This document shows positions 38,331 to 40,348 of a stretch of 64,000 nucleotides of DNA, one piece after another (position 1 is the first letter of the stretch; each line of letters starts with the position of its first letter). The position numbers were made by a program, and so were the translations under genes. Under the pieces are notes generated by a model that was given only the letters and a program-made list of their open reading frames with translations, had not been told where the DNA came from and did not search any database. Origin of the DNA: Escherichia phage 215Ecol030PP; the sequence record PP328843.1. One strand, given 5' to 3'.

Positions 38331-38804
38331 TTATTTGATTTGTTTAGCAGACCAAATGCGGTCTTTAATAATTTTTTGGATGTCTTCAACATACTCAAGA
38401 GAGTGAACATGTGGATTATCTTTGAAACTATAAGCACGGGCTAACTTTTGGCCTTCGGTTTTGATTACTAAAAGCTCTTTAAGGATAGCTTCATATTTGG
38501 AGATAATTCCTTTAACAATATTTTTCTCTTGTGTGACTTTAGGATCTGCTTTAGGAGCAGGTTTACCTGAAGCCTTTGCAAAAGCAGCTCCAGTAGCAAC
38601 TAAACTTTTCCAAGCCATACTAACTGCATTCCCTGTAAATCCTTCGGCTTTCATATCACGAGCAAATTGGAATCGTGATTCATCGGAAGCATCTTTATAG
38701 GAATATTTACCCGCGGCAATGGCAGCTTTTGCAACAGCTTGAATTTCAGTGCTAGATGCTTCATTTAACACCGCTTCATTTAAAAATTGAGTATATGATT
38801 TCAT
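38331..38804 (-). CDS. internal-protein-like protein with capsid-targeting-sequence-like N-terminus (157 aa)
   Basis: Start MKSYTQFLNEA... resembles the T4 internal-protein leader MKTYQEFIAE; RBS AGGAAA; late promoter immediately upstream; flanked by twin terminators. Confidence 0.5.
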   Translation of the reverse strand: MKSYTQFLNEAVLNEASSTEIQAVAKAAIAAGKYSYKDASDESRFQFARDMKAEGFTGNAVSMAWKSLVATGAAFAKASGKPAPKADPKVTQEKNIVKGIISKYEAILKELLVIKTEGQKLARAYSFKDNPHVHSLEYVEDIQKIIKDRIWSAKQIK

Positions 38805-38842
38805 CTTATTTCCTGTTTTAATTCGGGGTTTTAATATACTAA

Positions 38843-38850
38843 TATTTATA
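38843..38850 (-). promoter_or_regulatory. late promoter (TATAAATA) for the internal-protein-like gene
   Basis: Plus-strand tatttata about 40 nt upstream of the ATG at 38804. Confidence 0.55.
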
Positions 38851-38852
38851 CT

Positions 38853-38879
38853 AAAAAGCCCCAACCTTTCGGTCGGGGC
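38853..38879 (-). terminator. intrinsic terminator (twin copy 2)
   Basis: Minus-strand GCCCCGACC-GAAA-GGUUGGGGC then UUUUU; differs from copy 1 by one loop base. Confidence 0.7.
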
Positions 38880-38886
38880 TAAGCCT

Positions 38887-39196
38887 TGCGGCAACCTTGT
38901 CGGGGTTCCACCTGCTAAGGCAAGTGTTTGTACGAAACGCCGGGATTCGAACCCGGTTATTAAGCAGTTGACGCTACTCAATATTTTTAAAAGGCCATAT
39001 CTCGACCATATCCGAACGTTCCGTCAAAAACGCTACTCGGCTTATGGCAAAGATATTTCCTCGAATCGATAATTCGGTGCGCCGTTTCTGCTGTGATATA
39101 AGGGGGCATTAACAAAACATAAAGATTTATTAATGCCAGTCCTTAAACAGGGAACATCAGTCCGACGACTTGCCGGTAGCGACCCGGCTTCTTGTC
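38887..39196 (-). ncRNA. structured RNA region downstream of tRNA-Arg (positional equivalent of the T4 small stable RNAs)
   Basis: About 310 nt non-coding between tRNA-Arg and the terminator; tRNA-like T-arm CCGGG-TTCGAAT-CCCGG at 38941..38956 but no full cloverleaf. Confidence 0.35.
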
Positions 39197-39352: not shown

Positions 39353-39466
39353 ATTAATACCTACTCCAACAATCAAGATGTCTTCACACGAAATTAAGAG
39401 AAGAGTGATCAGTTCAACCCCTATAATCGCGTCAAGTAGATATTAATGTGACAGTTGTCACAAATT

Positions 39467-39728: not shown

Positions 39729-40214
39729 TTATTTTATGTAATATTTATTTAAAAACTTTCTAGCTTGAGTATGGCTAACATTTATAGCGTTTGCATAATT
39801 TTTAATAAAACCTCGTTCATCCATATTAAAATTTTCTAATATTTTTAATCGTCTAGTTATCTCATCTTGACTTAAGGTACTTGCATTATTTTTAGAAATT
39901 TTTTCTAAGGACTGTGCCGAGTGTTTTCGACCATTAAAATTAAAATTTTTAGATTTTGGAGGAAATCTAGCATTTAATCTCGCATCTTTTGTATTTTGAT
40001 TATTAGTTGCGCAATATATGTTATTTAATGAATATGGTCCTTTATCGCCGAAACGGCACATGCAGTATTCATGACCCTTTCTTCCACGCTTATCATAATT
40101 TCCCGTTGATTTCCACCAATGCAGCCATTCATCAAAAGTTAAATTCCATTCAATGTTTCTACGTATAGCAGAATTCCGCTGAGAAATATATTTTGCATAA
40201 TCTTCTTTCATCAC
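39729..40214 (-). CDS. hypothetical basic protein inside the tRNA cluster (segB position), possible DNA-binding/nuclease-like; family unresolved
   Basis: 161-aa ORF; no GIY-YIG or HNH motif recognised; Cys/His cluster GHEYCMCRFGDKGPYSLNNIYC and C-terminal helix-turn-helix-like tail. Confidence 0.45.
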   Translation of the reverse strand: MMKEDYAKYISQRNSAIRRNIEWNLTFDEWLHWWKSTGNYDKRGRKGHEYCMCRFGDKGPYSLNNIYCATNNQNTKDARLNARFPPKSKNFNFNGRKHSAQSLEKISKNNASTLSQDEITRRLKILENFNMDERGFIKNYANAINVSHTQARKFLNKYYIK

Positions 40215-40258
40215 AAATTTCTCTACTTATTCAATACACTGAGCTAAATCAGCAAAAC

Positions 40259-40348
40259 TGGCGGAGGCGATAGGATTTGAACCTATGAGTCGCCGGAGCG
40301 ACTGCCGGTTTTCAAGACCGGTGCATTAAACCACTCTGCCACGCCTCC
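40259..40348 (-). tRNA. tRNA-Ser (anticodon UGA), long variable arm
   Basis: Acceptor GGAGGCG/CGCCTCC, anticodon loop CTTGAAA, long variable arm, CCA encoded. Confidence 0.8.

Follow-up and report, generated by a model that had tools for sequence, protein, structure and literature searches.

We analysed a stretch of 64,000 nucleotides (nt) from Escherichia phage 215Ecol030PP (sequence record PP328843.1), referred to below as the window, and focused on an open reading frame (ORF) located on its minus strand within the transfer RNA (tRNA) gene cluster. Based on sequence comparisons and a structural model, this ORF probably encodes a free-standing, two-domain homing-type DNA endonuclease that targets the DNA of tRNA clusters. 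The gene has replaced most of an ancestral tRNA-Thr gene, is patchily distributed among related phages, and resides in tRNA clusters across phage genera. The predicted product consists of an N-terminal nuclease-like domain and a putative C-terminal DNA-binding module connected by a flexible linker, with the following features.

39729..40214, minus strand: coding sequence (CDS) of the two-domain protein, 161 amino acids (aa) when read from the GTG at 40214 as in the ORF listing.
40211, minus strand: ATG, the probable true start, giving a product of 160 aa; the stop codon TAA lies at 39729-39731.
39969..40202, minus strand: N-terminal domain, aa 5-82, predicted as two helices followed by a beta-beta-alpha core.
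39975..40067, minus strand: beta-beta-alpha core, aa 50-80, the predicted active site with R54, D57, G59, Y61, N65, and N74.
39933..39968, minus strand: flexible basic linker, aa 83-94, with a predicted local distance difference test (pLDDT) score below 50 at residues 87-93.
39741..39932, minus strand: C-terminal module, aa 95-158, with a NUMOD3-like motif GRKHSAQSLEKISKN and, after it, a helical helix-turn-helix (HTH).

The ORF is a real gene and not a chance reading frame, because the differences among its intact copies are mostly synonymous and diverged orthologues exist. Between the intact copies of four phages there are 13-15 synonymous and only 3-5 non-synonymous changes (pN/pS, the ratio of non-synonymous to synonymous differences, 0.05-0.08), indicating strong purifying selection. 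All annotated homologues begin at the equivalent ATG and comprise 160 aa, and ATG 40211 is probably the true start in the window as judged from these sequences. As described by the first-pass annotation, a reading of the letters that preceded our analysis, the 161-aa lysine- and arginine-rich ORF sits inside the tRNA cluster, where the ORF listing places it on the minus strand between tRNA-Ser and tRNA-Met(Ile-CAU). The product has an isoelectric point (pI) of 9.88 with 17 lysines and 13 arginines (18.6%), and the GC content of the ORF is 29.8% vs 34.9% for the window. The same annotation had noted the absence of a GIY-YIG or canonical HNH motif, in line with our Pfam search, which returned neither and only a sub-threshold DotZ match, and with the NCBIfam search, which returned zero matches. 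Among the phage protein profiles, phrog_16521 matches the product with an E-value of 5e-55 and is annotated as “unknown function”, and phrog_4592, annotated as “decoy of host sigma70”, matches weakly. Some annotators have labelled the ORF a “putative site-specific homing DNA endonuclease”. As has been proposed for segB (PMC2330249), transcription from upstream probably covers the ORF along with the tRNAs.

The window belongs to a Tequatrovirus, i.e., a T2/T4/T6-like coliphage, and the 1.7 kb around the ORF match 1040 phage records, the best with 97-98% identity. ARAGORN identified ten minus-strand tRNA genes, in transcription order Gln, Leu, Gly, Pro, Ser, the ORF, Met/Ile(CAU), Tyr, Asn, His, and Arg. 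The immediate surroundings of the ORF are as follows.

40259..40348, minus strand: upstream flank, tRNA-Ser(UGA), 100% identical in ORF-carrying and ORF-less phages.
40238..40253, minus strand: tRNA-Thr remnant, the first 16 nt GCTGATTTAGCTCAGT, found in the alignment with the ORF-less phage JLBYU22.
39646..39720, minus strand: downstream flank, a tRNA with a CAU anticodon (called Met; Ile in T4), which begins 8 nt past the stop codon of the ORF.

In the ORF-less relatives JLBYU22, RB18, T4, and T6, a tRNA-Thr gene is located between tRNA-Ser and tRNA-Ile(CAU). The alignment with JLBYU22 revealed that the spacer and 16 nt of tRNA-Thr are kept, followed by the ORF, before the two sequences rejoin 8 nt ahead of tRNA-Ile(CAU); both flanking tRNAs are identical between the ORF-containing and ORF-less alleles. 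ARAGORN, Rfam, and blastn found no tRNA-Thr anywhere in the window, and Rfam detected only tRNAs at this locus apart from sub-threshold noise. The ORF and tRNA-Thr were mutually exclusive in all eight genomes inspected. Because of the remnant, the alignment breakpoints, and the lack of another tRNA-Thr in the window, we conclude that the ORF arrived by replacing most of the ancestral tRNA-Thr gene.

The gene occurs in 25 of the 1040 related phage records; phages Ec_MI-02, REP1, and OE5505 carry it. It is identical in nature and locus to “trna.1” of phage T2L (AJ880101; 97.9% DNA identity), an ORF whose function was given as unknown (Brok-Volchanskaya et al., 2008; PMC2330249). The window ORF is the full-length form of this gene: the T2, T2L, and SV76 records, nine of the 25 carriers, contain two deletions of 2 nt each, one in codons 8-9 and one in codons 31-32, and the other 16 records are intact. 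The 133-aa product annotated for T2 and T2L starts at an internal, out-of-frame ATG and is short of ~30 residues at the start of the nuclease domain. In T2, the copies carry frameshifts and are decayed, and the gene is dispensable.

We found a second clean presence/absence pair in the genus Biquartavirus, in which phage L9-6 has an empty spacer between tRNA-Asn and tRNA-Tyr, vs Aeromonas phage 31 with an insert there. The downstream tRNA-Tyr is identical in the two phages, and the tRNA-Asn upstream of the insert in phage 31 (L011 1371-1456) is strongly diverged and longer than that of L9-6 (L015 424-496). This diverged tRNA-Asn may reflect a co-conversion tract on one side only or a tRNA allele that arrived along with the endonuclease gene. 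The aligned alleles of Tequatrovirus and Biquartavirus display a hallmark of homing genes, namely presence/absence polymorphism at an otherwise conserved locus. The rarity among the 1040 records, the tRNA-Thr replacement with its remnant, the frameshifted T2 copies, the Biquartavirus pair, and the low GC content are signs of mobility in favour of a homing-type endonuclease.

As for the N-terminal domain, the AlphaFold2 (AF2) model is composed of helix, helix, strand, strand, and helix with pLDDT scores of 87-97, and its predicted topology matches the beta-beta-alpha-metal (His-Me/HNH) fold. The beta-hairpin followed by an alpha-helix, the core feature of His-Me fingers, is present in the model. 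W30, R54, D57, G59, Y61, N65, and N74 are invariant in family alignments of 16 and 64 sequences, and the motif R-x2-D-x-G-x-Y-x3-N-x8-N occurs in all 163 proteins from two family searches. The family has no Pfam, NCBIfam, or PDB sequence match, and nearly all Foldseek matches among viral models are uncharacterised proteins. An exhaustive HMMER scan of 1.84 billion representatives found 7,263 clusters (representatives at 50% identity) at E <= 1e-3 and 5,257 at E <= 1e-10. The first-pass annotation had drawn attention to a Cys/His cluster; the string GHEYCMCRFGDKGPYSLNNIYC is indeed present at aa 47-68, but H48, C51, C53, and C68 all vary, and we rejected a zinc-binding Cys/His cluster because these residues are not conserved across the family.

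Sequence profiles and the model point to PacI as the closest solved relative of the N-terminal domain, albeit a remote one. PacI is a His-Me finger nuclease that has an omega-loop tyrosine in place of the histidine base and holds its single metal ion with an aspartate and an asparagine (PMC5714182; PMC4081073); the roles of PacI residues given here are drawn from reviews. The alignment of 64 family members with nine PacI homologues by hhalign covers 75 columns with an E-value of 0.0016 and places R54, Y61, N65, and N74 on R93, Y100, N104, and N113 of PacI. Thus, the invariant Y61, located between the two strands, corresponds to the omega-loop tyrosine, and the invariant N74 in the core helix, aligned to N113, is a predicted metal ligand. 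The same alignment pairs the N-terminal helix region “RGIeFxLTFxEW” with “EGHxLTLTKxEF” of PacI. Independent, though indirect, support for the relationship comes from a bridging profile, phrog_3118 (“HNH endonuclease”), which is matched from both sides: by 30 of the 64 family members (best E-value 5.6e-11, profile positions 12-104) and by all nine PacI homologues (best E-value 6.4e-9, PacI residues 35-121 on profile positions 23-101).

In family members, the N-terminal domain is combined with NUMOD1, NUMOD3, the I-TevI DNA-binding domain, or HTHs of the sigma-70 region 4 type, at either end of the protein. Judged from these domain matches, the architecture follows the modular pattern of homing endonucleases. 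The relatives P0016, P0017, and P0022 contain two tandem nuclease domains that keep the R-D-G-Y-N-N motif in both copies and may be single-chain pseudo-dimers. P0016 additionally has four repeats resembling the I-TevI/NUMOD1-type DNA-binding motif (“TPxGxFxS”).

The C-terminal part of the window protein is a putative DNA-binding module that, by sequence, is homologous to the C-terminus of the RB18-type SegB-like GIY-YIG endonuclease. Residues 92-157 align to residues 145-212 of the RB18 protein (33% identity, E-value 1e-15), a stretch that contains a borderline Pfam NUMOD3 match and an HTH. The helix-turn-helix-like tail proposed earlier is therefore recovered as a NUMOD3-like motif plus HTH in common with the RB18-type protein. 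The preceding linker differs in length and sequence among orthologues. BLASTP revealed no significant similarity to T4 SegB (E-value 0.81), in which the C-terminal module is not present, and T6 SegB is of the T4 type and hence also without it. A candidate recognition motif for the window protein, taken from T6 SegB via a common C-terminus, was dropped because T6 SegB lacks this module. We also rejected a divergent SegB, which the first-pass annotation had left open, as the origin of the catalytic domain, given the E-value against T4 SegB and the lack of a GIY-YIG Pfam match. The idea of a mobile nuclease from another or a divergent family, suggested earlier, is favoured by the predicted histidine-less PacI-like fold, the tail of the SegB-like type, and the presence/absence polymorphism.

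Orthologues with 37-61% identity are found in other phage genera, including the Straboviridae genera Karamvirus, Jiaodavirus, Gelderlandvirus, and Biquartavirus. The named orthologues (37-58% identity) all reside between tRNA genes, with different neighbours each time.

Citrobacter phage CkP1: orthologue in the spacer between tRNA-Leu and tRNA-Thr.
Klebsiella phage KpV477: orthologue in the spacer between tRNA-Tyr and tRNA-Lys.
Salmonella phage S16: orthologue in the spacer between tRNA-Gln and tRNA-Arg.
Aeromonas phage 31: orthologue in the spacer between tRNA-Asn and tRNA-Tyr.

Each of these four abuts or overlaps the downstream tRNA. In CkP1, KpV477, and S16, the ORFs run 10-18 nt into the 5' end of the tRNA gene (L008 1963-1980, L009 1956-1965, and L010 1983-1992, respectively), and therefore processing of a co-transcript by ribonuclease P (RNase P) would remove their stop codons; down-regulation by RNase P processing has likewise been proposed for T4 segB (PMC2330249). 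Unlike these overlapping ORFs, the window ORF has its stop codon 8 nt upstream of the tRNA.

The residence of the gene and its orthologues in five genera always inside tRNA clusters, co-oriented and probably co-transcribed, together with the very basic nature of the protein, would also suit an RNA-acting factor that processes, modifies, or cleaves the tRNAs encoded beside it. We consider such a factor, which the first-pass annotation had put forward as a tRNA-processing or -modifying alternative, very improbable. Pfam and NCBIfam revealed no domain that would bind or modify RNA, PacI as the fold relative cleaves DNA, and the family's partner modules are those with which homing endonucleases bind DNA. 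With different neighbouring tRNAs in each genus, there is no constant substrate, and the same tRNAs are matured in most relatives, T4 and T6 among them, in the absence of the gene, which is dispensable and decayed in T2. Furthermore, the gene destroys a tRNA gene instead of serving one, and SegB with its GIY-YIG domain is equally associated with tRNAs, yet it is a DNA endonuclease (PMC13096335).

Other nuclease genes are found in the same kind of location among the loci compared.

OE5505, L002 2908-3516: HNH-like gene at the position where tRNA-Gln is missing.
RB18, L005 2210-2860: SegB-like GIY-YIG gene at the position where tRNA-Pro is missing.
T4, L012 1754-2419: segB before tRNA-Arg.
T6, L014 1257-1922: segB before tRNA-Arg.

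The slot of the window ORF had been regarded as equivalent to that of T4 segB, but it is an adjacent one: the ORF occupies the Ser/Ile(CAU) spacer, and segB lies between tRNA-Ile and tRNA-Arg in T4 and between tRNA-Tyr and tRNA-Arg in T6, one or two tRNA genes further downstream. Phage tRNA arrays are recurrent landing sites for several nuclease families, in agreement with the reported association of SegB with tRNAs (PMC13096335). In Aeromonas phage 44RR2.8t, we also observed a 184-aa T5orf172/MUG113 (GIY-YIG-related) ORF in the neighbouring Tyr/Lys spacer (L016 679-1233), which overlaps the 5' end of tRNA-Lys and is absent from phages 31 and L9-6.

The recurrence of homing endonuclease-like genes of several families in tRNA spacers raises the question of whether an active endonuclease could have been selected for breaks that drive recombination and amplification of the tRNA array, as an anti-defence locus, instead of for homing. 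T6 SegB cuts inside tRNA genes and drives the amplification of tRNA-Tyr, leading to escape from Septu (PMC13096335); in the window, a single tRNA gene separates the ORF from tRNA-Tyr downstream, and purifying selection on the ORF is strong. Nevertheless, the low frequency of the gene among relatives speaks against a general fitness benefit, and we regard this role as rather improbable. It would need the same predicted nuclease activity, is compatible with homing, and overlaps with the homing-type endonuclease favoured here.

Several observations weigh against a homing-type endonuclease with a PacI-like catalytic domain. The position of the catalytic histidine at the end of strand 1 is occupied by the invariant R54. 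The metal-binding Asp92 of PacI aligns to C53, and all 167 motif copies have Cys, Ala, Ser, or Gly before R54; our proposal that Asp92 is functionally replaced by the invariant D57 is a guess. Both zinc sites of PacI are absent, with C63 and C66 falling into an alignment gap and C109 and C112 standing opposite T70 and Q73. The link to PacI is remote: the hhalign probability for the two families is just 16%, the family compared with the single PacI sequence gave an insignificant 0.3%, the ORF profile had no match among PDB sequences even at E <= 10, and Foldseek against the PDB gave PacI an E-value of 1.2 and no match at E <= 0.001. Recognition of the tRNA T-psi-C region has been demonstrated for T4 and T6 SegB (PMC2330249; PMC13096335), but these characterised SegBs are without the C-terminal module of the window protein, and their recognition is therefore not transferable. 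As for expression, a hairpin sequestering the ribosome-binding site, as in I-TevI or T4 segB, was not found (z = 0.55), nor was a dedicated promoter, the promoter/terminator scan being no richer than shuffled sequence. In crosses between T4 and T2L, trna.1 was almost wholly displaced by T4 segB and remained in 0.4% of the progeny (PMC2330249), with the caveat that the T2L copy is the frameshifted one and the T4 partner carries segB. Finally, the single PacI-like HNH enzyme of the lactococcal Skunavirus phages to be tested in vivo had no significant exclusion activity (PMC12724721).

The missing HNH histidine and its preceding aspartate, together with the missing zinc sites, could instead indicate a catalytically dead nuclease derivative that now serves as a sequence-specific DNA-binding protein only and might regulate transcription of the tRNA cluster or shield the tRNA genes from SegB-type enzymes of competitors. 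His-Me fingers that bind DNA without catalysis are known, e.g., the Smad MH1 domain (PMC5714182); the PacI-like phage HNH protein without exclusion activity (PMC12724721) and the weak match to phrog_4592 point in the same direction, and purifying selection proves a function but not which kind. However, the equivalents of the catalytic tyrosine and the metal-binding asparagine of PacI, as well as the arginine and the second asparagine, are invariant in 163 of 163 proteins, which would be unexpected for a mere DNA binder. The tandem nuclease domains of some relatives are as expected if a double-strand cut needs two active sites. A selfish element also fits a rare gene (25 of 1040 records) that is dispensable and decayed in T2 better than a regulator does. 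We therefore judge a catalytically dead derivative unlikely.

For the homing-type endonuclease, we propose the following mechanism. The NUMOD3-like/HTH module would anchor the protein on a long, loosely defined site in the tRNA cluster of ORF-less related phages, most probably in or beside their intact tRNA-Thr gene, and the flexible basic linker would place the N-terminal beta-beta-alpha-metal domain on the DNA. There, Y61 might stand in for the missing histidine as in PacI, acting as base or nucleophile, while N74, probably together with D57, would hold a single divalent metal ion (Mg2+), with R54 at the canonical histidine position. Phage recombination would then repair the resulting nick or double-strand break of the co-infecting genome that lacks the ORF, with the ORF-bearing genome as the source, thereby copying the gene and erasing tRNA-Thr. 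In this mechanism, the carrier genome would be immune because its own tRNA-Thr has been cut down to 16 nt.

Compared with known systems, the window protein differs from PacI (PDB 3ldy/3m7k; His-Me finger group 20 of Jablonska et al., 2017) in several respects. PacI contains two Cys4 zinc sites and an aspartate directly before the arginine, whereas the window protein lacks the zinc sites, and its family has Cys, Ala, Ser, or Gly before the arginine. PacI, a restriction enzyme, is a homodimer that stands alone and has an 8-bp site, unlike the window protein with its separate NUMOD3-like/HTH domain, encoded by a polymorphic insert in a phage genome. The SegB-type GIY-YIG enzymes (T4 and T6 SegB; RB18 and RB51 SegB-like) resemble the window ORF as free-standing genes of the same tRNA cluster that encode a catalytic N-terminus and a DNA-binding C-terminus, the C-terminal module being common to the RB18 type only. 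Their catalytic domain is of the GIY-YIG type, with PF01541 matched by RB18 SegB-like and T6 SegB, whereas the window ORF has no PF01541 or PF19835 match. They are also inserted elsewhere (Gly/Ser in RB18, Ile/Arg in T4, and Tyr/Arg in T6, as opposed to Ser/Ile for the window ORF).

The phage-encoded HNH enzymes of the I-HmuI type (His-Me finger group 2) likewise have an N-terminal beta-beta-alpha-metal domain followed by NUMOD/HTH modules, and they act as monomeric nickases (PMC5714182). They are, by analogy, a plausible functional model for the window protein, although I-HmuI has a canonical D74/H75/N96 active site, and the window protein has an arginine at the histidine position and no Pfam HNH or HNH_3 match. 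The lactococcal Skunavirus PacI-like HNH genes are, like the window ORF, phage-encoded, variably present, and presumed to be homing endonucleases (PMC12724721). They are PacI-like by HHpred, are likened here to the window family by description, and are located in the morphogenesis module instead of a tRNA cluster.

Elsewhere in the window, homologues of two T4 small stable RNAs lie directly downstream of tRNA-Arg: rnaD (species 2; 39076-39192, minus strand) with 86% identity to T4, and rnaC (species 1; 38931-39069, minus strand) with 98% identity. The mechanically called ORF at 38331..38981 overlaps rnaC, and the real CDS must begin internally; the REP1 annotation comprises 474 nt. The trna.2 ORF of T2L is absent from the window. 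The 114-nt spacer between tRNA-Asn and tRNA-His (39353-39466) has no tRNA or Rfam match and may be what is left of a decayed tRNA or serve as a processing element; most other spacers of the cluster are 1-13 nt long.

PacI-like HNH genes are already known as presumptive free-standing homing endonucleases in lactococcal phages (PMC12724721). New here are the assignment of T2 trna.1 and of a large unannotated family to a predicted PacI-like fold without zinc and histidine, the DNA-binding module in common with a GIY-YIG neighbour, the tRNA-Thr replacement, and the preference for tRNA arrays across genera. More tentatively, we suggest that the N-terminal module may define a family that is large (at least 7,263 clusters) and unannotated, made up of zinc-free, histidine-free, tyrosine-dependent beta-beta-alpha-metal nucleases, the engine of a distinct homing lineage, one branch of which could invade and remodel phage tRNA arrays by deleting one tRNA gene per insertion. 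If so, T2 trna.1 would be a decayed member of this family, and a classical phage T2 ORF known since 2005-2008 as “unknown function” would gain a function. T-even phages, with their GIY-YIG (seg) and canonical HNH (mob) homing endonucleases, would then gain a further catalytic type, the tyrosine-type PacI-like His-Me finger. Two endonucleases of the same cluster with one DNA-binding module and unrelated catalytic domains would exemplify module shuffling between selfish genes. A validated family assignment would improve the annotation of thousands of phage proteins, and the family could supply compact site-specific nickases or cutters. Each endonuclease gene of the Tequatrovirus cluster sits at a missing tRNA gene, and therefore such elements would shape the tRNA repertoire of the phage, a relevant point given the current recognition of phage tRNA arrays as anti-defence loci.

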